This document shows, one piece after another, positions 28,605 through 47,372 of a DNA stretch of 64,000 nucleotides. The first letter of the stretch is position 1. Each line of letters opens with the position of its first letter. The stretch covers positions 26,840 through 90,839 of the forward strand of contig CAZGTC010000004.1 in the NCBI GenBank assembly GCA_964528395.1. Direction: 5' to 3'. The position numbers and the translations under genes were made by a program. The notes beneath the pieces are model-generated. The model did no database searches. It had not been told where the DNA came from and saw only the letters and a program-made list of their open reading frames with translations. This DNA comes from an uncultured bacterium. Its GTDB lineage: Bacteria > Margulisbacteria > WOR-1 > CAZGTC01.

Positions 28605-28610
28605 AAAAAC

Positions 28611-29540
28611 ATGCCTTTTTCCCTTGCAGAAATTGCCCAAGCTGTTAATGGCCGAACAGTTAACGGAAAAGATATTCCTATTTCTTCTGTAAACCAATTG
28701 GCCTTTGTCTTGTCTCCGCACTCTTTGGAAAAAGCGCTGGCCTCTCCGGCAGCAGCCATTGTTATAAAGGAAACCACGAAAGCTCTGTCCAAACCAGCGA
28801 TTCTGGTAAAAGACCCGCGCTTGGCCATGGCAAAAATCCTGCTGCTGTTTGCCCCTATCCCAAAGCCCGGAAAAATCCATAAGACCGCAATCATTGATAA
28901 GACTGCAAAAATCGGGAAACATACTGCTATTGGCGCATATTCCGTAATCGGTGCAAATTGCCGGATCGGCGCAAATTGCATAATCCACAGCGGAGTTAAT
29001 CTTTATCCAAAAACCGAAATCGGGAATAATGTTATCCTGCATTCTGGGTGCGTGATTGGAGTAGACGGGTTTGGCTTTGCGCAGGATGAAAATAAAAAGC
29101 ATGTAAAAATCCCGCAAATCGGAAAAGTAGTCATAGAAGATGATGTAGAAATATTTGCCAATTGCACAGTTGCCCGAGCCACGCTCAATGAAACCCGCAT
29201 AAAAAAAGGCACAAAAATCGACTGCCTCTGCCATATTGCCCATAATTGTGAGGTTGGCGAAAATTGCGCTTTTGCTTCCGGGGTTGGGGTTTCGGGATCT
29301 GTTACCATAAAAGACCGGGTGCTGGTCGGCGGGCAGGTGGGATTTAACAATCATATTACGGTTGGCAATGACAGCTTATTGATGGGCCGCGCCGGCATAA
29401 CTAAAGATGTGCCGGAAAAAACCGTGGTTTCGGGATTTCCTGCCCAAGAACACCAAAAAGAACTCAAGCAGCAGGCCTTGGTCTCCAAGCTGCCGGAAAT
29501 CTATCAGCGCTTAAAAGCCCTGGAAGAAAAAAATAAATAA
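28611..29540 (+). CDS. lpxD: UDP-3-O-acylglucosamine N-acyltransferase.
   Basis: [15 protein letters not shown]-terminus, left-handed beta-helix hexapeptide repeats, HIAHNC catalytic His region. Confidence 0.8.
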
Positions 29541-31909: not shown

Positions 31910-34900
31910 ATGAGACCTTTCTTTAATCAATTTACTAGGCCAAACCTTTTTAATCCATATGGTTTAGGATCACATAACATTGGGGAAGGGATTGGACGGC
32001 TAGGGAGAACCCTTTTATTTCCACGTGTACATTGTAAAGGAGAAGGCGGCCCCCCCAGTGCCCCTTCTGCCCCAGCTGCCGGAGTTTCTACCGCCCCTGC
32101 GCAAGCCGCTGCTGGCAAAGTCATTCAGAGCGCCTTATTCATTGAACGAGCTCGGTTGTTTAGCCTCTTAGATCCTACAAATAAAGACTTAACCCAACAA
32201 ACCAGAATTTTAGAAGGTTATGCTCATGGGCAATATCCAATATTCGACAATGTCTTAGCCGGAAACACATTTCAAACGCTTATTTCTCACAACAGCCCGC
32301 TAAATCAATCTGGTTTGGCTGAAAAAGCACTAGATCGATTAGGCGGACTAAATCTTAGGAACAGGGAAATTAATCCTGCGGATGCTTATATGCAAATGAA
32401 AAGCATTGAAAGGATCTTAAATGAAACCCTTTATAATCGCTTGCTCATGTTTTTAGAAAATGGTACTCTCGCAACCCAAAGAGGCCTTCTCTTGTTTTTT
32501 TATCAATATGCCCTTATTACCAAGGGGGAAGAAAATGTAAAAATTAATGTCCCCCCAGAGCTAAAAACCGCTCTTGATAATGCAAAAAAAACCATGGCCG
32601 CAGAATGGGCACAAGAAAATGAACGCCTAAAAGCCATGGGCCAGGCTCCTGCCACACAAACTGATTTTGCACGTTTGATCTACGATGAAGGGAAGTTATC
32701 TCTTGCCAATATTATGGCAAAGCCCGGCGAAGCTGGAAGAGAAATGAGGACCATTGACCTTGAAACTGTTCTGGACGCCTTTAGAAATGAAAAAAGCAGC
32801 GACTTAATTCGCTCGGCCTTAAGGCATGCCCTGGCCAGTATTTTTGCCGGCCAAGAAAAAGATATGTTTCTCCAAATAACTACATCCCTTGAAGCCAATC
32901 AATTAGAGCAGCTTCCGCTTACCTTAAAAATAGCTCGTATTCTGTTTCAAACTCTTAATTCGCCAGAAAAAAAATCAAGACTCTACTCTCTTATATTTAA
33001 TTTTTATAGGGATAATCCTAACTCCCCCCTGAAAGAAGAAATACTAGATACCTTGGTCACTTTTAAATATGACGCCTTTGTCCATCCTAGCCGAAAATAT
33101 GCCGAGGACATGATCCAGCAAGAACTAGATCCTAATTCTCAAACTCCGCTGCGCAAAGCTGCAGGATCCAAGGCCGCAGAACCAATCGTCCTTCCCAAAA
33201 ATCGCGACCTTATGCTATATGTAGAAAAAATCTGTAAGGAATTAGGCGGGGAGCTTGTCAGCGCTATTTGCACTTTGGTAAAAGAAAAAAACATGCCAAA
33301 ATCACTTAGGGCAACTAATGGAAAAGCCGTAGAATCAACGGATATTTATAATAAATCCCAAGATGAGCTAAGCCAAAGGATTAGGGCTTTGAGCCAAACC
33401 GCGCAAAGGGTTTTTTGGGCTGCAGCTGATACCAGCGATCCGGATAAATTGCCAAACGAAGTATCTATGATCGGGAATTTGGATGCTTTTATTGAACTTA
33501 TCCAATTTATGATAAAAGAATTCAAGTTTGACCCCAGCTTACCAGGAAAAGTCATGTTGAGTAAGGCTGGCGCTGGAAGCCGCAGCGGCTTATTGGGCCT
33601 AGCTGAGGCCATTGACAAAGGCACAATTCGCTTAGGAAGAACTGCTTTTGAAACTATTTCCACTTTTGCTGCGGTCATTGTTTTATCACAACTGCCTGAC
33701 CATGGCAAAGGCTGGATCGTATTTACAGGCTGCGACCAGATGCTGATTCCTTATGGAGGAGACAATTTAACAATTGGAAGACATAAGGTTGTTGATTATG
33801 AAAAAAACACGGGCACAAAACTTCCGGGATTAATTATTACAACCGTTAGAGCTGAAGTCGAAGGATCTACCAATGCTGATGATTATAAATATTTATGCGG
33901 ATTAGGCAATGTTATTATTACTTCCAAGGACCTGCGCACAGATGTTGATGAAAAATCCAAAACTCCCGAAGGCCTGCGCCTAGCTTTTGTAGAAAAACCC
34001 AAAACCGTAGAACTTTTAAGGGAACAATTAAGAAAAGCCACTCTCTTTTCTGTTTTGGGAAAAGAAAACAATTGGGGTTCCAACTTAAAAAATTTTCTTA
34101 AGGGTAAAAACTTAGGGGGGGTTCCAGTAGAAGATTTATTTCTTGCCTGCGCTCAAGATTTAAACGTTACGCTCACATATTCCGGAAGTTTGAGAGATTA
34201 TTTTCTTGAAGTAGCTCGCGGGGAAAAAACCTTAGGCAATCCTAAACTGAATGCATTGGCTAAAGGCTTTATGTACACTTATATTAATACCTTTGTTATG
34301 TCCGCACGAGTAGAGATTGCAAAAATGCTTACCGAAGTATATGAAATGCCAACCGAAACAGATTCCTCCAGCATTTTAAGAAAAATATTTACCCAAGATC
34401 CTTATTTTGATTGGTCTCAATTGCTTATGGAAGCCATGGTCATTGGAAAAGACGAGCACCGCTATAAACCCGCAGCTAAAATACAAGGGGAATGGGAAAA
34501 TTTAAGGAAATGCAGCCAAAGATATGCCCGTATTTTATCTGAAATAGATGCTGATTTTGCAACAAGCCTTAATTTGCCCGCAAATTTTGATCTACCAGAA
34601 AATATGCCAACATCAATAAGCCCAGAACTAAACCAAAAGATAGAAGCTTTGGTTTGTCTAAGAGCCTGGGAAATTCGCAAAAGAAAAACCGAGGGATGGC
34701 AAAAGGTTGAACTAAATGACTGGATGCGGCTCTGGTGGGCAGCGCGAAAAATAGAACATTCCGCCAACGGACTAGGCGTAGCAGTAGCAGATTATTTTTC
34801 TGATACTGGAACCGTGGTAGAAGTTTTTAAGGTTTATTTTCAGATATTTTTTGATGAAAATAGAGCTGATCCTTATTTGAATAAAGACTATGCAGAAATC

Positions 34901-35548
34901 CAGCGCTTTTCACAAGGGCTTAGTACAACCCCAATACAAGGGCAAAATCGCTTTGTAAACTTTGAAAAAGGCATAAAATTTGGAGGAGAATCTCTAAATG
35001 AAGAACAGCTTTCACGCTTAAATACCTCAACTGATCCAATAACCATAAATGGGGTAACAATCCAAAATCCTAGATTTACTTATATTGGAGAAGGAACCGA
35101 GCTTGCGCAGGGTACAACCGTAGAACCATGGTCCATTCTTTTGCAAGCTAAATTGGGACAATCTACCCATATCCCTTCTTACTGTATTATAAATGGCGCT
35201 AATATCCCAAAAGCTCAAGTGGTATTTCCTGAACAAGAGCTTCCAAAAATTAAAGGGAAAAATGAGCAGGAACGAATTGCGCGGCCAGATGAAATAAAAC
35301 CCGGACACATGAGAATTATCTATGACCAGACATATGAAGGAGAAAAAACTCTGGTAATTGAGCCAAGTACTTTACATGGAAGCATTGAATTAATGGATAG
35401 CTTAAGGGCTCAAGCTTTGCAAGACATTAACGACGCAAAAATAAAAGGCCAAGTCCCCGGAGTTGGCATTGGTTTTGACCATTTAGCCAGCGCAGTACAA
35501 GCCTTTCCTAGGAGATTGCCCAGGGCAATTGATGGGGGGAAAAAATAA
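31910..35548 (+). CDS. Giant hypothetical protein (1212 aa), Ala/Pro-rich N-terminus, possible nucleotidyltransferase-like glycine loop.
   Basis: Long uninterrupted ORF starting 2 nt after the previous stop. KAGAGSRSGLLG resembles the G-x-G-(T/S)-R loop of sugar nucleotidyltransferases, a weak match. Confidence 0.45.
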   Translation: MRPFFNQFTRPNLFNPYGLGSHNIGEGIGRLGRTLLFPRVHCKGEGGPPSAPSAPAAGVSTAPAQAAAGKVIQSALFIERARLFSLLDPTNKDLTQQTRILEGYAHGQYPIFDNVLAGNTFQTLISHNSPLNQSGLAEKALDRLGGLNLRNREINPADAYMQMKSIERILNETLYNRLLMFLENGTLATQRGLLLFFYQYALITKGEENVKINVPPELKTALDNAKKTMAAEWAQENERLKAMGQAPATQTDFARLIYDEGKLSLANIMAKPGEAGREMRTIDLETVLDAFRNEKSSDLIRSALRHALASIFAGQEKDMFLQITTSLEANQLEQLPLTLKIARILFQTLNSPEKKSRLYSLIFNFYRDNPNSPLKEEILDTLVTFKYDAFVHPSRKYAEDMIQQELDPNSQTPLRKAAGSKAAEPIVLPKNRDLMLYVEKICKELGGELVSAICTLVKEKNMPKSLRATNGKAVESTDIYNKSQDELSQRIRALSQTAQRVFWAAADTSDPDKLPNEVSMIGNLDAFIELIQFMIKEFKFDPSLPGKVMLSKAGAGSRSGLLGLAEAIDKGTIRLGRTAFETISTFAAVIVLSQLPDHGKGWIVFTGCDQMLIPYGGDNLTIGRHKVVDYEKNTGTKLPGLIITTVRAEVEGSTNADDYKYLCGLGNVIITSKDLRTDVDEKSKTPEGLRLAFVEKPKTVELLREQLRKATLFSVLGKENNWGSNLKNFLKGKNLGGVPVEDLFLACAQDLNVTLTYSGSLRDYFLEVARGEKTLGNPKLNALAKGFMYTYINTFVMSARVEIAKMLTEVYEMPTETDSSSILRKIFTQDPYFDWSQLLMEAMVIGKDEHRYKPAAKIQGEWENLRKCSQRYARILSEIDADFATSLNLPANFDLPENMPTSISPELNQKIEALVCLRAWEIRKRKTEGWQKVELNDWMRLWWAARKIEHSANGLGVAVADYFSDTGTVVEVFKVYFQIFFDENRADPYLNKDYAEIQRFSQGLSTTPIQGQNRFVNFEKGIKFGGESLNEEQLSRLNTSTDPITINGVTIQNPRFTYIGEGTELAQGTTVEPWSILLQAKLGQSTHIPSYCIINGANIPKAQVVFPEQELPKIKGKNEQERIARPDEIKPGHMRIIYDQTYEGEKTLVIEPSTLHGSIELMDSLRAQALQDINDAKIKGQVPGVGIGFDHLASAVQAFPRRLPRAIDGGKK

Positions 35549-38500
35549 TGAGTATTATTAATAAAATAACCAGACTTTTTAAATCTACTTCTTCAGTGAC
35601 CAGCCCAAATACTATGGGGCCAAGAACCCAGCTAGCACTGGTTATGCTAAAACCCGGGGCCTTGGTAGCCTCACAATTTGTAGCCCAAGAACTAATCTCA
35701 AAGCTAGAGAAAATCCAAGGGGTATCCTCTATCCAAATAATCTGCCCTGAAATTTTTCCTTTTACTCCAGAAAAAGCGGATGCCTTTTATAAAAAACCTT
35801 TGGAAGGCAAACCTCCTGCATTAAAAAAAGAAATTGTTTCCCGCATGTCTGCAACTTCCGAAAACCCGGGTGAAGCCCAAACCCCGGTGATTGCTTTTAT
35901 TGTACGAGCAACTGTCGCCGGAGAAAAATCCCTTTATGAAATATTAAGGCAGCCAGATGTTATTGGCCCAACCTGGCCCATGGTTGGAGCTGGCGAAGGG
36001 AATATCGAAGTGGATGGGAAAACCATCCCAGCTTCTTTGGAAAAAATCAATGAGAGCTTGCGCCGCCAAGTTGAAGCGAGGTTTGGATTTAGCCCAACTA
36101 TTCGAGGCAATCCTAAAAATGCTTTTAATTTTATCCATTGTTCAGATAGCGAAAGAAATGCCTGGGAAGAAATCTCCCATCTTTTTAATCGTTCCGACCT
36201 GGAAAAATGGGGAATAGACAAAAAAACCCTGGATGCTATTTATCCAACCCCTCAAAACCCTAACCCTGTCAGCTACCCTTTCTTTAATTTAAACGGGCAA
36301 ATAACCATAAGCCAGTTTGCTTCGCCTCCAACTGATTTAGCTTTATTTATGCATGCTCAAAAGATTCTAGATAGAATAAATGCCCAACGCCAACAAACTG
36401 GACTAGCGACTTATCGAGATTTTAGTGCCCAAGCTCTTGAGCATATCTTATTGGATTGGGCAAGATGGTATCAAGTTCAAAACATTCCTTCCCAGCCCTT
36501 GGATAAAAATATTGCTACTTTAATCGGGCCAAGCGGATCCGGAAAAACATCCGTGGCTATGGCCTTATCCCAAGGCTTAGTAAACCTGGACGCTCTTAGT
36601 CCCAAAGGGCAAATTGTTCTTTATAATTTTCTACTTAAACATAAGCTTATTGATAAATTAGGAATAGTGTCAAAATATTTTATAGAGAATTTTGCTGGCA
36701 ACAAAGAAGAAGCATTTTTAAAATTAGTTGAGGGAGACAATACCCTGCAGCTAAACTGGAAAAAACATCTCTATTCTTATTTAAATAAAACAACTCAAGA
36801 AGCTGCGCAAGACTTTCAATTGGTTACACTTTCTACCAGCCGGGAGGGAGGAATTGAACCTGGAGAAGAAAGCCTAGGCACTAGATTTGAACACCTTATA
36901 AACATGGGCAGCTTCAAAGCGGTAGAACATTTTAGCGATGCAACCGGCAATATAGGCTATGGCATAAAAAAAGAACCCCTTCGCACTGCCCAAGAAAGAA
37001 ATTCCGGAATGATACTTATTGTAGCTGGGCCAGAAATAGCCAGACAACTAAATAGTTATACACTTTATATACAACCAGCTACAAACATTCAAGAATTTGA
37101 AGAAGCCACTTTTGAACGCTTAAAACAACGCGAACAAACCACGGGTCGCAAAGCCAAGGATAGGATTGCAGCTTCGGTTGCTCAATATAAAAATCTCGAA
37201 AGATTAGACTACGATTTTACAATAAACAATCCCTTAACTACAGAAGAACAACAAAAAAATCCTGATCCAGTTCAAATTAACCGTGATTTTTGCGCACTCG
37301 TACAACAAGCTAAAACAACATTACAAAATTTATCTGGAGCTCCCCAAGGGCTAGGAAGCGTAGCTGTTGATGCCGGAGCTTTTCCTCCTCGCGCCGCTCT
37401 CTTGCGCAATTCCCTGTCTGGGCTTTTGGATAAAGTTCAAAAAACTGCAACTGCAACCTTATTTAATCCTGAAGGCGAACCATTCAAGGTTTTACGAGCT
37501 TTCTTGCTTGAATGTTTCCAAATGAATGAATCTCGAACCATCATGAGCAAAAAAGAAAAAAGCGATGGGACAAAACCGCTCGAAAGCAATATGACTGCGG
37601 AGCAAAATCTCGTAGAATCTACAACTGGCCATATCCTAGGGGTAGTTGGCATGGCAAAAGCGGTTGCCACTTTGCCAGAAGTTAATTTATATGCAGCCAA
37701 AGGCCCTGGGTTTGCCAGCCTTTGCTTAGGAACCGAAGATCTTCATCGCGAACGCGAGCGAAATAATCTTCAAGCAATTAATAATCTTCTGGCCGCGAAG
37801 GCCGTTACCCTCGCCTATTTTTCAGAGTTTGGCTCAATAAAGGCAAAAGAATATTGGAACATGCTTATCAAGGAGAAACAGATTAAACCAAATGGCCAAA
37901 TTTCAAAATTTGAAGGAAAGTTAGAAGCGTTTAAATTACCAAAAGACATTTCTGAAGAGATAAGAATTAAACTTTTCAATATTTTACTACGCGCTCAAAT
38001 CATAAAAGAAGAAACCCTTTTGCGTTTAGCCCTCCTACATGACATCGGAAAAATGCAAGAACCGGATAAGCTCTATGGCCATGATCGCCAAAGCGCACAG
38101 CTTATTGCTGATTGCCGTTTGTTAAAAAATATTCCTTTTGATCCAGCTAATCCAAAAAAAGTAGATGACTTAAAAAGCAAATTAGAAAAAGCTCAAGCCG
38201 AGGGTAAAAGCCCAGAAGAAATCGATGATATAGAACGTGAATTCTATGCTGTCCAAAGCGATGAAATAGAAGCTAACCGCACAATTTTTACCTTGGCGAT
38301 TAAACACCACCATGCAATTGGCGGGACCTTTGAAGGCGGGGTTTCAACCCATCATTTTGGGGAAATTTTCCGCGATTCAGAAGTAAAGGGAATTTTAGAG
38401 GAGCCGGGTTGCGATTCTATTGGGCGAGCAACCTTGCTTATCAACTACCTTGCTGCTATAACTCTGTTGGATATAGGCGGGCATGGCCTGCTTTCAAACT

Positions 38501-39231
38501 TAAGGGCGGAACATTATCTGGCTATGAGAGAAAGATTAATTGCAACCGTATCAAAAACACAACCATTTTCAGCAGATCAAGTAGCTCAAGCTTTGGAAAA
38601 ACTTGCTGTTGCTGAAGATGCCCTAAAAAGATTAGGCGCCATCTTGGTTCCCAACCATCAACAAGGGGGATATTCTATCGCGGATAAAAGCCATAAAACA
38701 CTCGAGGATTATGGGGCTCAAGCCCGTCAGGATATAGACACAGCTCTACAAAATAACGTCATAAGCTCAAATGATTCTGATAATATTATTAAATATTTCC
38801 AATTTGTTGCCCTACGCTACTTTCCGCTCTGGCAATTGGCTGGAATAGAAGGGGAAAAATCAACAGTTGATAATCTTCCGCATATGCATCCAAGTGCTAT
38901 GCGCTTTATCTCATTACTAGTTAACATCGCCCGAAAGGTAAAAGACAAAATTGAAGTTGTTGTTGTAGATAAAAACAACCACCTTGTGGTAGCTTCTGAC
39001 CAAGCAACTGCCAGCCAAAAAATCCATGAAATACTCTCCAAAAATATTGCAGGGGATGTTAATTCTAAAATTACGGGCGATATTTCTACTGGATTATCTA
39101 TAAGCGGGGCCGAACAAAAAATAGAAATACAGATACAAATGCCTAGCAATAATGGCGAGCCAGCTAAGGTAAGCATAAAACTTATGGAGCTTGAAAACCA
39201 AGTCTTAAGAAAAAACGGAGATGGAAAATAA
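35548..39231 (+). CDS. Giant multidomain protein (1227 aa): NDK-like domain, P-loop (nucleotide-kinase-like) domain and HD phosphohydrolase domain.
   Basis: aa ~25-215 align with NDK (LKPG, FY, TIRGN, NFIHCSDSERNAWEEISHLF versus NxxHGSDSxxxAxxEIxxWF). Walker A LIGPSGSGKTS at aa ~327. HD motifs LALLHDIGK and KHHHAIGG at aa ~830-900. Confidence 0.55.
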   Translation: MSIINKITRLFKSTSSVTSPNTMGPRTQLALVMLKPGALVASQFVAQELISKLEKIQGVSSIQIICPEIFPFTPEKADAFYKKPLEGKPPALKKEIVSRMSATSENPGEAQTPVIAFIVRATVAGEKSLYEILRQPDVIGPTWPMVGAGEGNIEVDGKTIPASLEKINESLRRQVEARFGFSPTIRGNPKNAFNFIHCSDSERNAWEEISHLFNRSDLEKWGIDKKTLDAIYPTPQNPNPVSYPFFNLNGQITISQFASPPTDLALFMHAQKILDRINAQRQQTGLATYRDFSAQALEHILLDWARWYQVQNIPSQPLDKNIATLIGPSGSGKTSVAMALSQGLVNLDALSPKGQIVLYNFLLKHKLIDKLGIVSKYFIENFAGNKEEAFLKLVEGDNTLQLNWKKHLYSYLNKTTQEAAQDFQLVTLSTSREGGIEPGEESLGTRFEHLINMGSFKAVEHFSDATGNIGYGIKKEPLRTAQERNSGMILIVAGPEIARQLNSYTLYIQPATNIQEFEEATFERLKQREQTTGRKAKDRIAASVAQYKNLERLDYDFTINNPLTTEEQQKNPDPVQINRDFCALVQQAKTTLQNLSGAPQGLGSVAVDAGAFPPRAALLRNSLSGLLDKVQKTATATLFNPEGEPFKVLRAFLLECFQMNESRTIMSKKEKSDGTKPLESNMTAEQNLVESTTGHILGVVGMAKAVATLPEVNLYAAKGPGFASLCLGTEDLHRERERNNLQAINNLLAAKAVTLAYFSEFGSIKAKEYWNMLIKEKQIKPNGQISKFEGKLEAFKLPKDISEEIRIKLFNILLRAQIIKEETLLRLALLHDIGKMQEPDKLYGHDRQSAQLIADCRLLKNIPFDPANPKKVDDLKSKLEKAQAEGKSPEEIDDIEREFYAVQSDEIEANRTIFTLAIKHHHAIGGTFEGGVSTHHFGEIFRDSEVKGILEEPGCDSIGRATLLINYLAAITLLDIGGHGLLSNLRAEHYLAMRERLIATVSKTQPFSADQVAQALEKLAVAEDALKRLGAILVPNHQQGGYSIADKSHKTLEDYGAQARQDIDTALQNNVISSNDSDNIIKYFQFVALRYFPLWQLAGIEGEKSTVDNLPHMHPSAMRFISLLVNIARKVKDKIEVVVVDKNNHLVVASDQATASQKIHEILSKNIAGDVNSKITGDISTGLSISGAEQKIEIQIQMPSNNGEPAKVSIKLMELENQVLRKNGDGK

Positions 39232-39249: not shown

Positions 39250-40743
39250 TTAATCTCGTATAATTATCTGATCAATCCCCGCCCCCACCCCAATCCCATA
39301 AACATCTACTTCTAATTGCTTTTGAATAAACCAGATCAGTTCTTTTGCTTCTCGCGGCAAACCATCAAAAGAATTTATCTGGCCAATTTCTCTTTGCCAT
39401 CCGGGAAATTCTCTATAGATAGGAGTAGCCTGTCTTAATATATCAGTTAAAGTCGTATCTCTTTCTGTTTGATTAATCCCCTGAAGGCTTCTTCCTTCAT
39501 ACCTTTGGGCAATCTTGACCTGGCTTAAGCTATCCAAGCGGTCTAGACAACTAATAAATAACCCTTGTATTTCAGGGTTAAGCCTTAGGGAATATTTTAG
39601 CAATTCGAGGTCCAGCCAGCCGATCCTAAAAATCTGCTGCAAAGGAGAATTATCTCCTCGCACATCATCTCTCAAAGGATTATGTTCTTTTCCTGGTTTA
39701 ATAATTTCTGTAGGCAACGGGGCATTCCCCAGGTCCCAACGGTGCATATAAGGGCGAAATACCCCAATTGCTTCAAATTTATCCATTGGCAGACTGGTAG
39801 ATACATTTAAGGCTGAAGCCATGGCATGGGTCGGGCTATTATAGGGGTATGTTCCATTAACACGGTCAAGCAATACCCCTTGAGACCCTTCTGCAACAAT
39901 AGAGGCCCCGGCTTCGTATTGTTCTTTTATATAACTTAACCCCTGGCTTTCATCAACAATCTTTTCGCTAAAAACTGATCTCCAAGCCCGGCATAAATTA
40001 TAGAGATACTGCAGTTCAAAATGTTCTGGATTATAATGCCTTGAAACTAAGCCCGCAGAACAACTTAAAATCCCCTGTGCTTTAGTACAATTGAATTGTA
40101 GGAGAATTTCTATTTTTTGCTTTAATTCTTCCTCTGATAAAAACAAATCCCTTACTTGCAGGCCGCGGCCTTCTTGTTGGTCTAAGTAAGCAGGAAAGAT
40201 TCCTCGGCCAATAGTACTATGCCCAGCTTGCCCTTGATAAGCTGCCTGCATACGGTTTATATCAATGTGAAAAGGAAGAACCAAAAAAGCTGCATTGCTG
40301 ACAAACACCCGGTTTTTTACGTCAAAACCATGGTTTATCTTAAGGCTATCAAATTCTGCTTGCAGGCGAGAAAGGTCTACCAGCATCCCGGCCCCCAAAA
40401 AACCCTTGTTATTAGGGTGCGCCAAAGTTGCCATAGGCACTTGGTTAACTACAACTTTACAATCCGGGGCATATTCAATCCCATGCCCTGCTTGCGGCCC
40501 TCCATTATAGCGAAAGCCTATAATTGCGGCATTAGGTCTATCGCTGCGCAAGGTATCCGCCATACGAAAAGCCAAGGCTCCTTTGCCCCCATCGCCAAAT
40601 CCCAAGTCAACGATTAAATGCGCTGTGCCTTTTTTTTCTAAGGCTCCCCTAAAAGGCCAATGCTGACGGAAAAAAGATGGCTTATGGCCAATAAAAATAG
40701 TCCTTTGACCCTTATGAATACGAAGAGATGAATGTGATTTCAT
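39250..40743 (-). CDS. Divergent adenylosuccinate synthetase (PurA)-family protein with N-terminal extension and altered aspartate loop.
   Basis: PurA motifs in order: GFGDGGKGA (QWGDEGKGK), GGPQAGHG (GGHNAGHT), STIGRGIFPAYLDQQEGRGLQVRDLF ([25 protein letters not shown]), EGSQGVLLDRVNGTYPYNS ([21 protein letters not shown]), IGWLDL (TGWLD), CLDRLDS (TKLDVLDG), GAGIDQIIIRD (GPDRTETMILRD). The GATTGRRRR Asp-binding loop is replaced. Confidence 0.65.
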   Translation of the reverse strand: MKSHSSLRIHKGQRTIFIGHKPSFFRQHWPFRGALEKKGTAHLIVDLGFGDGGKGALAFRMADTLRSDRPNAAIIGFRYNGGPQAGHGIEYAPDCKVVVNQVPMATLAHPNNKGFLGAGMLVDLSRLQAEFDSLKINHGFDVKNRVFVSNAAFLVLPFHIDINRMQAAYQGQAGHSTIGRGIFPAYLDQQEGRGLQVRDLFLSEEELKQKIEILLQFNCTKAQGILSCSAGLVSRHYNPEHFELQYLYNLCRAWRSVFSEKIVDESQGLSYIKEQYEAGASIVAEGSQGVLLDRVNGTYPYNSPTHAMASALNVSTSLPMDKFEAIGVFRPYMHRWDLGNAPLPTEIIKPGKEHNPLRDDVRGDNSPLQQIFRIGWLDLELLKYSLRLNPEIQGLFISCLDRLDSLSQVKIAQRYEGRSLQGINQTERDTTLTDILRQATPIYREFPGWQREIGQINSFDGLPREAKELIWFIQKQLEVDVYGIGVGAGIDQIIIRD

Positions 40744-40767
40744 GACTATCCCTCTAATTATATATCG
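40744..40767 (-). promoter_or_regulatory. Locus motif instance 2 (minus strand): CGATATATAATTAGAGGGATAGTC immediately before the ATG of the PurA-like gene.
   Basis: Reverse complement of 40744-40767. GAGGGA RBS 5 nt before the ATG. Confidence 0.55.
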
Positions 40768-40855
40768 GTATTTTTAGCCAATAATTTCAAGCTTAAATAT
40801 TTATTTTTCATTTAAAAAAAATATATGCTGCTCTGAAATTTTCGGCCTTTTTTGT

Positions 40856-40880
40856 CGATATATATATGAGAGGGAAATTT
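40856..40880 (+). promoter_or_regulatory. Locus motif instance 3: CGATATATATATGAGAGGGAAATTT immediately before ATG 40881 of the 2168-aa gene.
   Basis: Same architecture as instances 2 and 5. The divergent intergenic region 40744-40880 carries one copy for each direction. Confidence 0.55.
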
Positions 40881-43800
40881 ATGGCAACGAATAGAATGGC
40901 AGTTTCACCCATTAGATTTTCAAACCGGTCTTCTCTGGCCGTGGAATTTACCCGTTGTTTAAAAGATTTTTCTACCCTTGAACAAAAAAGAAATTTTATT
41001 GCCTGTATGGCCAGTTACGGCGTAATCAAAGAAAAATACGCCCCCCAACTTGTGGAAAGCGCCTCCCCAAGCGCAGTTGAACGCACGCATCTTTCTATGA
41101 TGCTTACCCAGGAAAGATTAGATAGCGCAATGGATATCTGGGGAAAAATATCTGCGGAAAATCCTAGCCCATTAAGCGCAGCCACTTCTCCTTCAACACT
41201 AAAAAGCAAAATCCTAAATATTATCTGGGACATCCGGGATGGGCTTTTGCCTTTGCTGTATTCTAAAAGAGATATCATCAGTGCCAAGCATCGTTCCTTG
41301 CTAACCCTTACCCTTATCCGACAGGCTGCCAAAGCCTACTCCGGATTAAGTGACCTGGCAGAATCTGCAGAGATCAACTGGTCTTCTGACGGGAATTTTG
41401 CCAATCCGCGCGAAGCACAGCTGGTCCACCAAGCCCTGCTTGAAAACCAAAAAGACCTGGCCCAAAAAATGTCTCAAGATTCTTTGGCAGTTATCAAATA
41501 TCTTGTTGAAAAAGGCCATTACATTAACCAAAGAAGGATTTCCCCGAAAGAAAGGGATCTTTATGTTCGCATTTCAGAAACTTTAAGAAAAATAAGCTCT
41601 GGCCAGGAATCTGCAGAAGCGTTAGCCGGAGAAATTAACGGGCTAATTGAAGCATATGAAAAAACCTTGGTCTTGAGTTTTTATGCTGCGGTCAGCGATC
41701 GCCTCCGCCCACAAAAAAAAGGGCTGACAAAAATAACCAACAGCTTAAGGGAAATAGCAAGGGATGCCCAGGCAGTCGTACAAGCACAAAAAAATCTAGA
41801 AGAAGCACGAAAAATAAAAGATGAGAACTTCAATCCCGAAACTAATAAAGATTTCGAAAATAAAAAAACCCTTCTCGAAGGTGCGCAGCAAGAGTTTGCT
41901 GACGCAATTAGAGAATCGATCCTGCATATCAATGACCTGCTCACCTCAAACGAAGATAAAAATTTCCTTCTAAAAATAATCGCTGGAAGCGCAATCTTTT
42001 TTTCTATTATTTTTCTGTTCTACCGCTGGTATATGGGAATTGCAACTAACGCAGGAACTGGCCTCTTAAAAACTGCTAGCCTTTCTTTGGTTGTTGCGGA
42101 AACTTTTTATAATGGTTTAGCCATTATCTACCAACTAGGGGTCATCCGCAGCAGTGCCCATGCCAATGGAGAAGGCTATCTTCCTCTTATGCGCAAAGGA
42201 TTGGACCCGGATAAAGATAAAAGACCCCCTTATGCTTTTGTCTTGACCATGGTAGAAGAATCTGTGGGAGCTATTTTTGAGAACATTCGCAGCCATACTC
42301 GCTCGGCTTGGGAATATGGGAAAAAATGCCATGTTTTGGTCTGCGATATGTCCTCCCTCCTGTTTAATAAGATTGGGGCATTGGCTGCTACAACCCTCTC
42401 CCAAAAAATGACTGCCCGTAAATTAATCGTTAAATCTGTGGCCATTTCCAAGGGGATAAGTTCCGCCAAAGCAGAAGAGCTTTCTTCGGTCATAGCCTCA
42501 CAATTTACCGAAGTAGACGACAAAGAATGCCGCTTCTGGTGCATTGCCCGTGTGGCTGAAATTGGCCGAAAATTTTATCTTCCTGAAGCCCGAGTAAAAG
42601 AATTAGGGAAAAAGCTCGCGAAATTATTCGAACAGCGCAACCAGGATAAAAGTCCCTTAGACCATCTGGAAGTTCCTGTAACTTTAAAATGGATAACCGA
42701 CCAGCTCATTGCTATGGGGGGACAGGGAGAAAAAATCCCGCTAATCGCTGAATTGATTGAAAAAGAACTTCATTCCCTGGTAAGACGCTCTAGTATTTCG
42801 CGCGTTTTTCATTTGGTTTTTTGCGGAAAAAATCTTTCTTTAGCAGAAAGAAAAAATTTGGAAAACAATCTCTGCCTTGAATTCAAGATTACCCCCAACC
42901 AAGCCCAACTTTTAACTGGCGAAATCATGGAAAATGTTGCACAAATTGAAAAGATCGCATCTGAAGCAGTTGGAGAGCAGGATTTCTTTTCATACCCATC
43001 TGCCCTTAGGCTTTATAATGGGTTAAGGGCTGTCATGGGACAGTTTATGATCAATGATAAACGCACTGCCCTTATCTCTGAAAGCCTTTTTGAAAAAATT
43101 CAAAAGATCGTTCAGAATGAACTCTACATGGGCAAAGAAGCTACCCGTTTATCCTTGGGTCAGGGCCCTCAAGTCTGGAAAAATTCTAACGAAATAGGAA
43201 CTGCCATTGCCCAAGGCATTGATAAGCTAAGAAATTATTCTTTAATGATCGAGGACCAAATAAAAACCATTCCTAATCCTTCTTTCAAAGATATTGAAAA
43301 CGCCCGTGAAAAAGCTTGGGAAGAATATAGTCGAAAAGTGAAAAACACGGTTTTTAGAATAGGAAAAAAACACGGCTTAACTACTAAAGAAAATGAAAAA
43401 ATCGCCAAGGCTATCTTGGAAAATTTTGAAGAAAACAAAAAAGTTCGCGACCTTGCCAGCCATGAATTTGCCAACCAAGTCATAAAATTTGCCCGGGCAA
43501 TTGTACAAAACAACCAAAAAATTTCGGATGAAGAATTATTAAATGACCTGCTAACTAACCTAAGGATCAAACCAACCGGAGATCAAAAAGGCGGAGTAGG
43601 CTTGGCAGTAAGCTTGCTTTTAAAAGATATGCAAGTTGCTGCAACCGAAGCGCAAAAAAAGTTTGCCACCCAAGCTTTTGACGCAACCTTGGATCCTGAA
43701 AAAGATCGCCAAGAATTGATCAATAAATTACAGGGTAAAGATAAAGACGGCAAACCTATCCCAAAAACCGAATTACCCGAAGGGTTTTTCCCTTTTTCTC

Positions 43801-46800
43801 AAGAAAGAGCCACAGAATTTGTAGATGCTTATATAAAAATGTATAAACGCCAAGTCGGCTTGCTAAAAGAATTGGTCCCTAGCCTTCGGAGCCTTGTTAT
43901 GGGCGGACCAGAAGATTCTGTCGCTGGTATTGAGGGGGGATTGATTTCTCCCATCCAGGCCAAACGCACAGATGGCGGGAATATTATGGTTGGAGAAACT
44001 CTTATAGATTTAGAAGAAATAAAAAAAGATATTGGGGAAAGAATCCGTAAAGTTGATGTTGACTACCGTGGAGGAGCCAAGGCTGGAGTTATCTGCTCTG
44101 CTATTCTTGGAGGCACGATCCCACAATATATTGGGGAACAACAACGCTGGACACTCCATCAAATGATTGAAGAAAGAATCTTTAACCGCCGCCGCGTTCC
44201 TCAACAGATTATTACTAGAATTGATACTCAAATTTCTGGTCAAAGAGGTGTATTGCCACGTTCCCTGGATGAAAAATTATGCGATGCGGATTTTATTGCC
44301 ACAATCATTGTTAATGCCTTGGAACAAGGCAAAAAAACCGATGAAATTCTTGATCTGCTCATCAATGAAAAATGGAAGCTGGGCAAAGATATTGCTCCCA
44401 GCCTGCTGCTTAATCTAAGAGAAATAATTGCTGAAATCAATTGGAATCTTGTTTTTGGCCACTTGATCAATCGCATAGGACAAGAAACATCTGGAGAAAA
44501 AAGGCAACGTCTTGTCAGCAATATTCCCGAATTAGTAGAAGCGGTAGCAAAAAATCGCGGCTTATCCAAAAAAGAAAAAACCCTTATGGCAAAATGGGGA
44601 GAAAAAATTAAAGCTAACATAAATCAGGGACTATTTGTAATTGCTGGCAATGGGGACAACTATTATCTTAGGTTGCATGAAAACGCTGCGCGCAATAATC
44701 GCGTTGAAGAGGCTCTTTTTGAGCATTACCACGAGACCCTCCGCAGCTATTACCAAAACTTTATTTTTGGGTCTCCTACTGCAGAAAATGATATTTATGT
44801 ACAAGCCCATAACAGCTATATAAAAAAGTATGATATTCAAGGGGATGAAAGTTGCAGCGCCAAAAGTTTGGTTAATATAATCATAGAATTAACCCGCGCA
44901 GGAAAAGGTGCTGATACTATTCTTGAGACAGTTCAAGACCAATGGCAGGCTCAAAACAACAAAGAACGTCAAGCTGGATTGAAAAAAGTTGTCCTAGAAG
45001 TACGAAAACGCATTGTCCTGGGAGAACTCCTTCCTTCAATAATAGCTAGCCCTCAAAGCGAAGAAGGCTTTGTAATTAACCTTAATGCCCTCAAAGAGCT
45101 CTATGGTATTTCTGACCCGGAATTAACAATATTAAAACCAGAAGCAAACAAAATTCAAGAACTAATCAAAGATATTTTTACTTCTGCCTCCATAGGGAGC
45201 CTAAAAACAGAAATTGACCCCCATAATAATCGATTAAGAATTACTCTTGCAGATAAAGAAAATAGCGTGGCAGTTGCCCGGCATCGCCAAATAACAAAAG
45301 AATTAGAATTTTATCAGGCCCATATTCTATCTCCAAAACAACCAACTGCCGAGCAGATCGCCCAAGAGCTTATTATTCGCGGCCGCCTTCCGCTTACTAC
45401 CTATAGGCGCGAGGCCTTTGCATCCGAAATCCAAAAGACCGCTCCTCTTTTAGAAACTGCTTATAAAGCCGTAGAACCGCAGGTCCAAGAAATCAAAAAA
45501 AAGAAAGAAGCCGAAGGCTTATCTACAGATGAAGCCTTAAGGCAAACCACCTTAGAAGCTCTTGACCTAATAAAAGCGCAGATGGAAAACCTAGTTAAAT
45601 CTTCGGGCATGAAAAATTATTTGAACGAAAATATTCCCGAAGCTTCTACCCTGAAATATACCGGCTTTCACTGCGATGACGCAGATTATCGCGCCCATCG
45701 TACCGCAGCCACGGATCAGGCTCCTTACTTGCAAGAAAGAAAAGGCCTTGTCATGACCGGCCAAAGGCAATTCGGAAGAGACCGCGGAAAACCCATGGCT
45801 GACGCCTTTCAAAGCGGAGGCAACGCTTACTGGGGATTTACCAATATCAGTGCTTCACTTTTGGGAATTACTCCTTCTTGGGGATCTTGTGTTTCTTACT
45901 CTTCCAGATCTTATCGCCACAGCGCTTTTTGGATCGGAGCCATTCCTTACGAAGGCACAGTAGCTAAATATTTTGGTTATACTGGGAAATTCCAGCTTAA
46001 AAAGCTCTTAAATATTACCTCTGATTATTTATATGAACTATATATCAATTCCTCTTTTTATAAAGAGAGAGAGATGGTCTGGCCTTTGGTTATGGGGCGC
46101 TTAGCCAAAAAAATTGCCGGGGCCGGCGCTTTTTGCTTTGATTTAGCTTATGCTTTTTCTTTTCTTATTGCGCGGGATAGCTTGAATTATCTGTCTTCTC
46201 ACGGTTTTATGCCCGGGTGGCTGCCAGACAGCATAACCAATATTATTGAACGCCCGATTGACAAGAAAAAGCTTTTGGAAAAAAGCCCAGCCTCTGGGCC
46301 AATGGAGCTTTTTGCGATTCAAGACTGCACAACCGAATCTGAAGATATTGCTTCAGGAATCCACTTTTTTAGGGAGATCCGCTTTGCCACCGAATTAGCT
46401 AATCCTTGGTGGGAAAGATGGTTAACCAGCTTAACCAGAGCTCCAGAAGGCTTATGGAATGCCCTTTTTATTGAAGGAATCGGGTCTTTAGGGGCCCATT
46501 CAGATGGTATCAATAGTGCTAATGTTACTTTTTATGCACGTTGGGCTCGCGGCAATGAAGCCATTATTTGGGATATATTATCCACCCCCATGGGATTTTC
46601 CAGAAAACTTCATTTTGCGGCACTTTCATTATTTTGGAATACCGGCTTGTTCAGGCCAATGTTGATCCTTTCTCCTATGGCTTTTATGGGATTGGGCATT
46701 TCTACGGTTTTAATGGGGGCTAATCCTTTGGGCTTCTTATCTCTTTTAGTTCTTTGTTTTGGATTTAACATGACTGCTTTCTTATACTCTATGCGCAAAC

Positions 46801-47372
46801 GCGGATTTTTTAGATGGGACAACATGAAAGAAACCTTGGCTTGCATGTATTTAGATTTTGGCGGATTAAACCGCATGCTCAAATCTTTTTATCAAGGCAC
46901 GATCTGGGGGGAAAGGCCGCCCTTTGAACCTTCTCCTAAAGAAAGTGTAGTTATTGAAAAAGTCCCGCTACGCAAGCTCTGGATGGAATATGGCCTGCTG
47001 GCTGGTAATGCCACTGCCCTAGGCTATACCATGCTTTATGGTTTTAGCCCGCAAATTAAACAAGCTGTAGCCCTGCTTTCGCAACAAGCTGCGGATTATA
47101 TACCGCTTATGGGAGGAACCCCAGAAATGCTGCTTGCTGGAGTTTGGACTGCTTTTCATGGGGTATTGATCGGCACTGCCCTGAAAAAATTTAATAAAGG
47201 GGTGTATACCGAAAGGCCTTATGTGGGAACCCTAAAGGCGATCTGGAAAGATTTATCCCCTGGGCCAAATACGCATATAAATAAAGGCACCAACTATGAT
47301 AATAATCTTCTCCTTCTCAAAGAAGAAGGCAATGGAGGGCTAACCTACGGCTATTTAGCTATGCCTAATTAG
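40881..47372 (+). CDS. Giant membrane protein (~2163 aa) with a central TM hairpin and a C-terminal polytopic membrane domain.
   Basis: Uninterrupted ORF. Hydrophobic segments at aa ~370-420 and multiple near the C-terminus (LILSPMAFMGLGISTVLMGANPLGFLSLLVLCFGF...). Start set to the ATG at 40881, which aligns with the conserved motif/RBS; the track start 40866 lies inside the motif. Confidence 0.5.
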   Translation: MATNRMAVSPIRFSNRSSLAVEFTRCLKDFSTLEQKRNFIACMASYGVIKEKYAPQLVESASPSAVERTHLSMMLTQERLDSAMDIWGKISAENPSPLSAATSPSTLKSKILNIIWDIRDGLLPLLYSKRDIISAKHRSLLTLTLIRQAAKAYSGLSDLAESAEINWSSDGNFANPREAQLVHQALLENQKDLAQKMSQDSLAVIKYLVEKGHYINQRRISPKERDLYVRISETLRKISSGQESAEALAGEINGLIEAYEKTLVLSFYAAVSDRLRPQKKGLTKITNSLREIARDAQAVVQAQKNLEEARKIKDENFNPETNKDFENKKTLLEGAQQEFADAIRESILHINDLLTSNEDKNFLLKIIAGSAIFFSIIFLFYRWYMGIATNAGTGLLKTASLSLVVAETFYNGLAIIYQLGVIRSSAHANGEGYLPLMRKGLDPDKDKRPPYAFVLTMVEESVGAIFENIRSHTRSAWEYGKKCHVLVCDMSSLLFNKIGALAATTLSQKMTARKLIVKSVAISKGISSAKAEELSSVIASQFTEVDDKECRFWCIARVAEIGRKFYLPEARVKELGKKLAKLFEQRNQDKSPLDHLEVPVTLKWITDQLIAMGGQGEKIPLIAELIEKELHSLVRRSSISRVFHLVFCGKNLSLAERKNLENNLCLEFKITPNQAQLLTGEIMENVAQIEKIASEAVGEQDFFSYPSALRLYNGLRAVMGQFMINDKRTALISESLFEKIQKIVQNELYMGKEATRLSLGQGPQVWKNSNEIGTAIAQGIDKLRNYSLMIEDQIKTIPNPSFKDIENAREKAWEEYSRKVKNTVFRIGKKHGLTTKENEKIAKAILENFEENKKVRDLASHEFANQVIKFARAIVQNNQKISDEELLNDLLTNLRIKPTGDQKGGVGLAVSLLLKDMQVAATEAQKKFATQAFDATLDPEKDRQELINKLQGKDKDGKPIPKTELPEGFFPFSQERATEFVDAYIKMYKRQVGLLKELVPSLRSLVMGGPEDSVAGIEGGLISPIQAKRTDGGNIMVGETLIDLEEIKKDIGERIRKVDVDYRGGAKAGVICSAILGGTIPQYIGEQQRWTLHQMIEERIFNRRRVPQQIITRIDTQISGQRGVLPRSLDEKLCDADFIATIIVNALEQGKKTDEILDLLINEKWKLGKDIAPSLLLNLREIIAEINWNLVFGHLINRIGQETSGEKRQRLVSNIPELVEAVAKNRGLSKKEKTLMAKWGEKIKANINQGLFVIAGNGDNYYLRLHENAARNNRVEEALFEHYHETLRSYYQNFIFGSPTAENDIYVQAHNSYIKKYDIQGDESCSAKSLVNIIIELTRAGKGADTILETVQDQWQAQNNKERQAGLKKVVLEVRKRIVLGELLPSIIASPQSEEGFVINLNALKELYGISDPELTILKPEANKIQELIKDIFTSASIGSLKTEIDPHNNRLRITLADKENSVAVARHRQITKELEFYQAHILSPKQPTAEQIAQELIIRGRLPLTTYRREAFASEIQKTAPLLETAYKAVEPQVQEIKKKKEAEGLSTDEALRQTTLEALDLIKAQMENLVKSSGMKNYLNENIPEASTLKYTGFHCDDADYRAHRTAATDQAPYLQERKGLVMTGQRQFGRDRGKPMADAFQSGGNAYWGFTNISASLLGITPSWGSCVSYSSRSYRHSAFWIGAIPYEGTVAKYFGYTGKFQLKKLLNITSDYLYELYINSSFYKEREMVWPLVMGRLAKKIAGAGAFCFDLAYAFSFLIARDSLNYLSSHGFMPGWLPDSITNIIERPIDKKKLLEKSPASGPMELFAIQDCTTESEDIASGIHFFREIRFATELANPWWERWLTSLTRAPEGLWNALFIEGIGSLGAHSDGINSANVTFYARWARGNEAIIWDILSTPMGFSRKLHFAALSLFWNTGLFRPMLILSPMAFMGLGISTVLMGANPLGFLSLLVLCFGFNMTAFLYSMRKRGFFRWDNMKETLACMYLDFGGLNRMLKSFYQGTIWGERPPFEPSPKESVVIEKVPLRKLWMEYGLLAGNATALGYTMLYGFSPQIKQAVALLSQQAADYIPLMGGTPEMLLAGVWTAFHGVLIGTALKKFNKGVYTERPYVGTLKAIWKDLSPGPNTHINKGTNYDNNLLLLKEEGNGGLTYGYLAMPN

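Follow-up and report, generated by a model that had tools for sequence, protein, structure and literature searches.

A PurA-like protein without the canonical aspartate-binding loop, encoded in a conserved cluster of giant genes in an uncultured WOR-1 bacterium

Introduction

This paper describes a PurA-like gene encountered in a stretch of 64,000 nucleotides from an uncultured WOR-1 bacterium (assembly GCA_964528395.1, contig CAZGTC010000004.1, positions 26,840 to 90,839; the window hereafter), which is predicted to encode a protein with the fold of adenylosuccinate synthetase (PurA) in which the catalytic residues are intact and the aspartate site has been abolished. Rather than the housekeeping PurA, the protein probably represents a purine-modifying enzyme of a new kind. 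Moreover, the gene is linked, in a conserved manner, to genes encoding a fusion of nucleoside monophosphate (NMP) kinase, nucleoside diphosphate (NDP) kinase and HD domains, and a giant membrane protein. Our tentative reading is that the gene product is a guanosine triphosphate (GTP)-dependent enzyme of the adenylosuccinate-synthetase fold, a specialized paralogue employing a nucleophile other than aspartate, which would feed a nucleotide to a polysaccharide-type system.

In the PurA reaction, GTP phosphorylates the oxo group of a purine and an amine then displaces the phosphate. To our knowledge, all characterized members of the superfamily use aspartate, including PurA, PurZ/PurZ0, and ToyG of toyocamycin synthesis. 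A conserved lineage that combines the phosphotransfer residues with a rebuilt nucleophile pocket would extend the PurA fold to new products, and the gene described here would be a concrete and clonable candidate for a new modified nucleotide. No description of superfamily members lacking the aspartate site, of the wider clade to which the protein is compared below, or of the giant-gene cluster was found in the literature, NCBIfam, or PADLOC, and no relative that has been characterized was encountered. The cluster, which comprises seven genes in WOR-1-like bacteria and was not described before, joins nucleotide-activating domains to a cellulose-synthase-like machine.

Fold and family assignment of the PurA-like protein

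The PurA-like gene and its parts are located in the window as follows, with the evidence given in brackets; residue numbers with a single-letter prefix refer to E. coli PurA unless stated otherwise.

39250-40743, minus strand: PurA-like gene, 497 amino acids (aa), ATG start (open reading frame listing, PF00709, AlphaFold2, Foldseek).
40618-40743, minus strand: N-terminal extension of approximately 42 residues, basic and predicted to be disordered (Pfam match starting at residue 44, alignment, model confidence).
40576-40602, minus strand: P-loop GFGDGGKGA, with the counterparts of D13 and K16 kept and K18 replaced (alignment).
39607-39672, minus strand: RDDVRGDNSPLQQIFR, which replaces the aspartate-binding loop, and the retained IGWLDL after it, with P, L, Q, and F at positions 300, 301, 303, and 305 (alignment).
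39532-39555, minus strand: guanine-recognition block ISCLDRLD (canonical TKLD), with C at position 331 and D333 kept (alignment).
40744-40865, no strand: A+T-rich intergenic region of 122 bp between the divergent PurA-like and 2168-aa genes (sequence).

The ATG start codon is preceded by a Shine-Dalgarno-like GAGGG sequence, 7 nt to its 5' side. The match of the encoded protein to the adenylosuccinate synthetase family PF00709 runs from residue 44 to residue 494 and covers positions 2-416 of the 416 in the profile (Pfam, E=1.3e-70), and therefore all PurA landmark blocks are present in their canonical order, i.e., GFGDGGKG (residues 48-55), GGPQAGH (81-87), GRG (180-182), EGSQG (285-289), IGWLDL (374-379), and SCLD (398-401). 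The closest solved relatives by sequence are bacterial PurAs, including those of Legionella (6BS7, E=3e-42) and E. coli (1ADE, E=1.6e-36), and identity to the solved PurA structures amounts to approximately 22-26%, whereas the phage PurZ structure 7ODX was matched at E=0.0011 only. A model built with AlphaFold2 from 53 sequences reached a mean predicted local distance difference test (pLDDT) score of 85.9 and a predicted template modelling score of 0.86 and is confident except at residues 1-34 and in a few loops. Foldseek superposed this model on the solved PurAs 5I34, 1DJ3, and 1CG3 with template modelling (TM) scores of 0.78 (query) and 0.90 (target), as compared to query scores of 0.51-0.58 for 7ODX and 7VF6 (0.58 for PurZ0 and 0.51 for PurZ), and a search of a viral fold library returned distant PurA and PurZ matches only. 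The preliminary description, which was made from the sequence alone, had assigned the gene product to a divergent PurA-family protein of canonical fold, with the landmark segments in order and IGWLDL retained, and the profile match, the model and the structural comparison agree with this assignment.

The divergence within the family is reflected by the NCBIfam models, since the PurA equivalogs NF002223 and TIGR00184 gave 215 and 200 bits, respectively, which is about half of their cut-offs of 402 and 396 bits. The NCBIfam PurZ model NF038379 scored 49.2 bits against a cut-off of 300. Another deviation is the N-terminal extension, which had been noted before as one of 45 residues; it is indeed present, but its length is approximately 42 residues. 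The extension is common to the nearest relatives, in which it follows the consensus G-x-R-x-x-x-G-x-x-T-I-F-x-G-R, and its pLDDT is below 50 at residues 1-34.

Active-site residues

The E. coli sequence used for numbering was checked at D13, K16, N38, H41, T129, R143, Q224, T239, R303, R305, K331, and D333. To compare residues, 209 retrieved PurA-family sequences and E. coli PurA were aligned to a hidden Markov model (HMM) of the canonical family, and the classes distinguished were 119 canonical sequences, 68 sequences of a wider clade with a WQG motif (the WQG clade), and a group of 10 sequences to which the PurA-like protein belongs.

The most prominent difference concerns the loop that binds aspartate in PurA. 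The motif RDDVRGDNSP, proposed in the preliminary description as the replacement of this loop, is located at residues 358-367 of the PurA-like protein, and both phmmer and hmmalign placed G363-DNSPLQQIF-R373 where E. coli PurA has G298-ATTGRRR-R306. Thereby, T300, T301, R303, and R305 are exchanged for P, L, Q, and F, and R306, G308, W309, L310, and D311 are kept. In the canonical class T301, R303, and R305 are each found in all 119 sequences and position 300 is a threonine in 93. Because the aspartate ligands are invariant or nearly so among the canonical sequences, the loop difference is no alignment shift, and the check for displaced aspartate-binding residues revealed none.

The loop, however, is not the sole change, and in this respect the earlier account was incomplete. 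N38, T129, R143, V273, and K331, which are conserved in 119, 118, 115, 118, and 105 of the canonical sequences, respectively, are replaced by Q, I, G, L, and C. The residues G12, D13, K16, G17, H41, E221, Q224, R272, R306, G308, W309, D311, and D333 are all retained. In the adenylosuccinate synthetase of H. pylori the phosphate of inosine monophosphate (IMP) is bound by Arg135* (R143 in E. coli), which the other subunit supplies, together with Thr230 (T239), Asn37 (N38), and Thr121 (T129), the ribose is contacted by Val264 (V273) and Arg294 (R303), Asp12 (D13) touches N1 of the base, Lys322 (K331) lies within the GTP site, and Arg294 and Arg296 (R303 and R305) bind a sulphate in the aspartate region (PMC11571797). 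The four ligands of the IMP 5'-phosphate, N38, T129, T239, and R143', correspond to Q, I, S, and G in the PurA-like protein, and in the guanine-nucleotide block K331 is replaced by C and S414 by G, with D333 kept. Structures of the E. coli mutants K16Q, R143L, and R303L with 6-phosphoryl-IMP were among the Foldseek matches.

Taken together, the alignment indicates that the residues for phosphotransfer (D13, K16, H41, Q224, and the guanine-specific D333) are kept and that the aspartate site is gone. The IMP-phosphate site is partly remodelled, with the loss of T129 and of R143, the arginine provided by the partner subunit. Since alterations affect three of the four residues that contact the IMP 5'-phosphate, the enzyme may also have a different first substrate, and the loss of R143 and T129 implies that the acceptor may be held in another way than IMP.

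Relatives of the PurA-like protein

The exact protein is a singleton in a collection of 15 billion proteins. An exhaustive HMMER search of 1.84 billion representatives recovered 7,223 PurA-family proteins, of which only four (P0062-P0065) are clearly closer to the PurA-like protein than the rest, with 34-38% identity, scores of 207-262 bits, and matches that begin between residues 7 and 39. The N-terminal extension is present in P0062-P0064 and the replaced loop in all four. An orthologue from candidate division WOR-1 bacterium RIFOXYA12_FULL_43_27 (OGC03774.1) is named either 'hypothetical protein' or 'Adenylosuccinate synthetase' by its sources, the latter in UniRef.

The group of ten PurA-like proteins, which are 28-51% identical, shares a consistent residue pattern. 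Invariant in all ten are G12, D13, K16, G17, H41, G130, E221, Q224, G308, W309, D311, and D333. R143 and R303 are replaced in 10 of 10; R305 is likewise replaced throughout, by F in 8. Replacement of T300 and T301 was seen in every member that aligns there, T129 is I in 8 of 10, and K331 is C or N in 9. Such a pattern is the hallmark of an enzyme that is under selection and whose second-substrate site has been rebuilt, and the conservation of D13, K16, H41, Q224, and D333 among these distant relatives argues for an active enzyme, which is in line with the non-aspartate nucleophile suggested at the outset.

Several additional searches were less productive. Word-indexed protein searches with the PurA-like protein, the subfamily alignment, or an alignment of the 1212-aa neighbour returned self matches or distant PurAs only. 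Scanning of genome contigs with the single PurA-like protein gave no matches, and the same scan with an alignment, for which generic motifs had been chosen, gave almost only canonical PurAs. A metagenome scan with an alignment of the neighbouring NDK-GMK-HD fusion recovered the WOR-1 contig alone, PADLOC matched neither the PurA-like protein nor its neighbours to a defence system, and literature searches on PurA-like paralogues, linkage to von Willebrand factor A (vWA) genes, and purine metabolism in Saganbacteria found nothing relevant.

The WQG clade

The WQG clade, which accounts for at least 68 of the 210 sequences retrieved, carries HNxxNxWQGxFRxGWLD in place of the aspartate loop. Its members further display T[C/N]LD instead of TKLD, H273 (68 of 68), Q at position 38, and C or V at position 129. 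D13 and H41 are present in 68 of 68 members and Q224 in 67 of 68. Names of the source organisms include Yanofskybacteria, Pacebacteria, Chloroflexota, Clostridia, and Saccharibacteria. Neither a paper on the clade nor a model for it in Pfam, NCBIfam, or PADLOC was found; source databases annotate its proteins as adenylosuccinate synthase, and this automatic annotation matters for metabolic reconstructions of reduced genomes, including those of the Candidate Phyla Radiation, Chloroflexota, and others.

The PurA-like protein of the window shares with the WQG clade the loss of R303 and R305, F at position 305, the retained R306, the loss of R143, and a residue other than T at position 129. The clade furthermore has C, N, or H at position 331, T or S at position 18, and E135 in most members, and Q38 is found in the PurA-like protein as well. 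LQQIFRIGWLD of the latter aligns to WQGxFRxGWLD of the clade, with L replacing W301, whereas the clade-invariant H273 is L in the PurA-like protein and H in 5 of the 10 group members. The PurA-like protein scores about equally with the HMM of the clade and that of the canonical family (275 versus 285 bits), and four of its five nearest relatives score higher with the clade HMM; for P0063, P0064, and P0065 the respective bits are 349/272, 310/238, and 344/283. In an overall distance analysis the distances were saturated, and the protein was not placed relative to the canonical and WQG sequences.

The typical neighbours of the WQG clade are vWA-like and kinase-like genes rather than the NDK-GMK-HD and giant-gene cluster described below. 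Clade members adjoin one to three copies of an unannotated, approximately 330-aa vWA-like protein with a DVTGSM motif in Chloroflexota, the L004 genome, and Saccharibacteria, and a kinase-like gene is encountered nearby in Chloroflexota, where it is fused to DnaJ, and in the L004 genome. The vWA-like gene is present in the loci L002 (5812-9341), L004 (5209-9317), and L036 (883-6571), and has no blastp similarity to any protein of the window.

A conserved cluster of giant genes

The PurA-like gene is embedded, on the opposite strand, in a locus of giant genes, in agreement with what had been reported from the first inspection of the sequence. The neighbouring genes are the following.

30750-31907, plus strand: 385-aa protein, first gene of the conserved cluster (Smith-Waterman).
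31910-35548, plus strand: 1212-aa protein, kept in five loci (motifs, profiles, synteny).
35548-39231, plus strand: 1227-aa convergent neighbour, a fusion of NDK-like, guanylate-kinase-like, and HD/HDIG domains (Pfam, profile, synteny).
40866-47372, plus strand: 2168-aa membrane protein with five hydrophobic segments, homologues of which are the divergent neighbour in every locus (transmembrane scan, profile, synteny).
47386-51357, plus strand: 1323-aa protein that carries the twin-arginine-type signal SRRAFLAG as well as a glycoside hydrolase family 8 (GH8) domain (Pfam, N-terminus).
51416-57061, plus strand: 1881-aa tetratricopeptide repeat (TPR) protein directly 3' of the GH8 gene and on the same strand (TPR matches, Pfam).

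Gene orders in the loci compared are given below, in which bracketed figures are protein lengths in aa.

Window: [385] [1212] [1227] PurA-like [2168] [1323 GH8] [1881 TPR].
L008 (WOR-1): [381] [1250] [962] PurA-like [1834] [1299 GH8] [1867].
L011: [409] [1280] [1043] PurA-like [2172] [1290 GH8].
L096/L097: [537] [1477] [1153] PurA-like [2289] [1323 GH8].
L098: [1223] [1030] PurA-like [1122+].
L007: PurA-like, then [1025] and a fragment of a 1212-like gene.
L095: PurA-like gene between fragments of both flanking genes.

The order of the NDK-GMK-HD gene, the PurA-like gene, and the gene for a membrane protein of approximately 2,100-2,300 aa is maintained in all 7 loci with readable flanks, and the flanking proteins are homologous between loci at 22-38% identity (blastp). 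The GH8 giant and the protein with NDP-sugar-pyrophosphorylase motifs are also present where the flanks reach far enough. The linkage of the PurA-like gene to the kinase and HD fusion and to the giant membrane protein is thus conserved. In 6 of the 7 loci the PurA-like gene lies on the strand opposite to its neighbours, and on the same strand in one. In the window, the 122-bp divergent region presumably holds both promoters, and a consensus sigma-70 site was not called within it. The G+C content is uniform at approximately 0.41 over the cluster, and a recent horizontal insertion was rejected because the G+C content of the PurA-like gene equals that of its flanks.

Domain content of the neighbouring proteins

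In the 1227-aa protein the NDK-like domain (approximately residues 27-220) contains FNFIHCSD, the guanylate-kinase-like domain (approximately 318-565) GPSGSGKT, and the HD/HDIG domain (approximately 818-990) LLHDIGK...IKHHH. A family profile of four homologues matched guanylate kinases in the PDB at positions 306-488 (E=1.8e-8) and NDK at positions 23-152 and 194-223 (E=1e-5). Pfam detected Guanylate_kin and NDK each in 3 of 4 family members, and HD in the protein of the window, where its score is just above the threshold (E=1.1e-4, 22.9 bits versus a cut-off of 22) and is accompanied by an NCBIfam HDIG match (E=3e-4). The HD domain that had been proposed for the neighbouring giant gene could thereby be confirmed, and its location beside NDK-like and guanylate-kinase-like domains strengthens the idea of a dedicated nucleotide pathway. 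A profile of the HD region matched no informative solved structure. Conserved throughout the family are the NDK catalytic-histidine motif FNxIHCS, the P-loop GPSGSGK(S/T), the HD pattern LLHDxGK...KHHH...D, and, following the HD domain, a C-terminal region with an LSNLR motif; the family is encountered in 7 loci.

The 1212-aa and 1227-aa genes overlap at the stop codon of the former and the start of the latter. In its C-terminal half the 1212-aa protein contains, in this order, GAGSRS (GAGTRS in homologues), GCDQ, FVEKPK, DYFSDTGT, and a left-handed beta-helix, from which we infer that this half is an NDP-sugar pyrophosphorylase. Its profiles match the beta-helix junction of GlmU and that of an archaeal sugar-1-phosphate nucleotidylyltransferase (E=0.001-0.008), and a weak GlmU match was obtained in NCBIfam. 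Pfam gave no match for this protein, and its N-terminal 500 aa or so are without an assigned domain. The 385-aa protein is homologous to the 381-aa and 409-aa gene products of L008 and L011 (Smith-Waterman z>10) and matched no Pfam or NCBIfam family.

The C-terminal region of the 2168-aa protein (approximately residues 1820-2030) contains the invariant motifs TESEDIAS and ARWARGN, which resemble TED and QxxRW of the processive glycosyltransferase family 2 (GT2) synthases such as BcsA. With a C-terminal profile of the family (4 homologues, approximately 510-630 aa each), Rhodobacter sphaeroides BcsA provided the top three matches among 177,635 PDB sequences (E=0.024-0.028), at QxxRW and the helices that follow it. 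Comparison of the protein with E. coli BcsA by Smith-Waterman gave z=5.8, a score reached by none of 200 shuffles, and hhalign gave E=0.004 but a low probability. Approximately 1,500 N-terminal residues are without a recognizable domain.

The GH8 domain of the 1323-aa protein (PF01270) was detected with E=2.5e-8 and 33.8 bits versus a cut-off of 24, and the protein is conserved, with this domain, in L008, L011, and L096. GH8 is the family of BcsZ. Part of the GH8 giants of other loci has a 596-aa paralogue, encoded further downstream in the window (59232-61022, minus strand; E=1e-13 to L011). Membership of the 1881-aa TPR protein in the cluster is uncertain, and no similarity was detected between this protein and the 1867-aa gene product in the same position of the WOR-1 locus over the part available.

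On basis of the BcsA-like motif, GH8, and the NDP-sugar-pyrophosphorylase motifs, the surroundings of the PurA-like gene look like a polysaccharide synthase system. The likeness to Bcs (BcsA of GT2, BcsZ of GH8, and BcsC with TPR) consists of a giant membrane protein in which transmembrane helices follow TED-like and RWARG motifs, an exported GH8 protein, and TPR. Unlike in Bcs, the proteins of the cluster are several-fold larger and have no Pfam match to GT2, BcsB, PilZ, or the BcsC barrel. We know of no Bcs system with PurA-like, NDK, guanylate-kinase, or HD genes of its own.

Proposed function and its alternatives

The reading that we favour, with a confidence somewhat short of an even chance, is that of a specialized, GTP-dependent paralogue of PurA with a non-aspartate nucleophile, serving a polysaccharide-type system, and the mechanism outlined here is offered as a hypothesis. 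The enzyme would use GTP to convert a lactam-type oxo group, most likely that at C6 of a purine nucleotide, into an activated phosphoryl intermediate, from which a nucleophile other than aspartate, such as ammonia or another amine, would displace the phosphate. The neighbouring kinase domains could then convert this non-standard nucleotide into its triphosphate, to which the pyrophosphorylase-like protein could attach a sugar, and the product would feed, or regulate, the cellulose-synthase-like giant export machine formed by the protein with the BcsA-like motif, GH8, and perhaps TPR. The HD domain might clear competing or spent nucleotide. A more specific version, which we regard as improbable in its full extent, holds that the cluster makes an extracellular polymer from a sugar donor on a non-standard nucleotide carrier, i.e., a private nucleotide currency for one machine. 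In that case the PurA-like enzyme, driven by GTP, would introduce a nucleophile other than aspartate at C6 and thereby yield a modified purine NMP. Phosphorylation by the guanylate-kinase-like and NDK-like domains would lead to the triphosphate, and coupling with sugar 1-phosphate by the pyrophosphorylase-like protein would lead to the donor, which the giant BcsA-like synthase would consume, and the HD domain would exclude standard nucleotides or recycle the carrier.

Several observations weigh against the favoured reading. The acceptor may not be a nucleoside 5'-monophosphate at all, considering the exchanges of N38 and T129 for Q and I and the loss of R143. As K18 and K331 of the GTP site are replaced, the use of GTP is deduced from D333 and the P-loop. 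A glutaminase or other amine-supplying domain was not recognized in the cluster, and the opposite orientation in 6 of the 7 loci means that the PurA-like gene is not co-transcribed with its neighbours there. Concerning the polysaccharide setting, the similarity to BcsA is marginal (E=0.024) and covers the QxxRW and transmembrane part only, and the proteins of the cluster gave no Pfam match to GT2, BcsB, or PilZ. The pyrophosphorylase assignment is based on motifs and on E values of approximately 0.001-0.008 that apply to the beta-helix only; an AlphaFold2 model of the C-terminal half of the 1212-aa protein, made from two sequences, had a pLDDT of 37 and was confident in the beta-helix only, and hhalign of the region to E. 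coli RmlA was non-significant, with the EKP motif aligned.

The most serious alternative, which we nevertheless consider unlikely, is that the protein performs the same phosphorylate-then-substitute chemistry on a target other than a free purine, such as the base or an acetamido group of a nucleotide sugar, or a group bound to a protein or polymer. Such a target would fit the polysaccharide-type cluster and the changes at the nucleotide site, where three out of the four residues that contact the IMP 5'-phosphate are altered and R303, a ligand of the ribose 2'-OH, is lost. In Chloroflexota and Saccharibacteria, genes of the vWA-like and kinase-like types accompany the wider clade, which has this type of loop as well, and their association hints at non-metabolic targets. 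However, the residues around the purine and part of the phosphate (Q224, D13, G127, and T239) are counted as kept, this cluster contains no vWA-like gene, and the fusion of NMP kinase and NDP kinase as a conserved partner fits best with a nucleoside monophosphate as the product.

A further explanation, to which we assign a low probability, is that of a subunit that is catalytically silent or only binds GTP and forms no new nucleotide, acting as a pseudoenzyme, GTP sensor, or scaffold in the regulation or assembly of the giant-protein machine. R143, T129, R303, R305, K331, and K18 have been lost together, the N-terminal extension, which is conserved, disordered, and basic, could serve for docking as a peptide, and the gene is transcribed apart from its neighbours in 6 of 7 loci with readable flanks. 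Despite this, D13, H41, and Q224 serve the acceptor chemistry and not GTP binding, and yet they are invariant in the ten proteins (at 28-51% identity) and invariant or nearly so in the 68 members of the wider clade. Moreover, the replacement loop itself is conserved (F305, R306, and GWLD), which fits a new binding site and not decay.

That the gene encodes the divergent housekeeping adenylosuccinate synthetase of the organism is very unlikely. The full-length PurA fold with its catalytic residues and the UniRef name of the WOR-1 orthologue would agree with such a role, and the fold, D13 and K16 of the P-loop, H41, Q224, GWLD, and D333 are indeed shared with PurA (EC 6.3.4.4; E. coli 1ADE/1CG0, H. 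pylori 6ZXQ). The two equivalog scores of 215 and 200 bits, however, are far below their cut-offs (402 and 396), T301, R303, R305, and N38 (119 of 119 canonical sequences) and R143 and T129 (115 and 118) are missing, K331 is changed, and the approximately 42-aa extension is added. In addition, the gene is surrounded by giant genes instead of purine or housekeeping genes, and synteny of the giant-gene cluster across lineages, at approximately 22-38% protein identity, is unexpected for a housekeeping gene.

An enzyme of the PurZ type (N6-succino-2-amino-2'-deoxyadenylate synthase), which the preliminary description had cited for comparison, acting in a 2-aminoadenine (Z-base) DNA pathway together with an HD-type dATPase, is hardly credible: a PurA-superfamily paralogue beside an HD domain and nucleotide kinases formally resembles the combination of PurZ, DatZ, and host NMP and NDP kinases, but the PurZ model gave 49 of the 300 bits required, the structure is much nearer to PurA (TM 0.78) than to PurZ or PurZ0 (0.51-0.58), PurZ uses aspartate, for which the site is absent here, PurZ is a short form of approximately 340-370 aa that is phage-encoded and acts on dGMP, whereas the present gene is chromosomal with housekeeping flanks and its HD domain is part of an NDK-GMK-HD fusion, and the locus is without polymerase, PurB, MazZ-like, or phage genes. 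A DNA-modification setting is not supported either, as the surroundings resemble a polysaccharide synthase system.

Other genes in the window

No purine genes were found among the genes of the 64-kb window, which carries Rnf-type subunits and ordinary housekeeping genes as chromosomal flanks of the cluster. The pair skp-lpxD is located at 28143-29540, and a signal-peptide protein with three S-layer homology (SLH) repeats is encoded at 61121-62908 on the minus strand; together, these genes indicate a diderm envelope with SLH anchoring. A gene for an AAA_14/DUF4143 ATPase is located at 6674-7909 (minus strand), and in the WOR-1 genome a gene of the same family (L008, 21350-21482), beside an IS110 transposase, borders the cluster.

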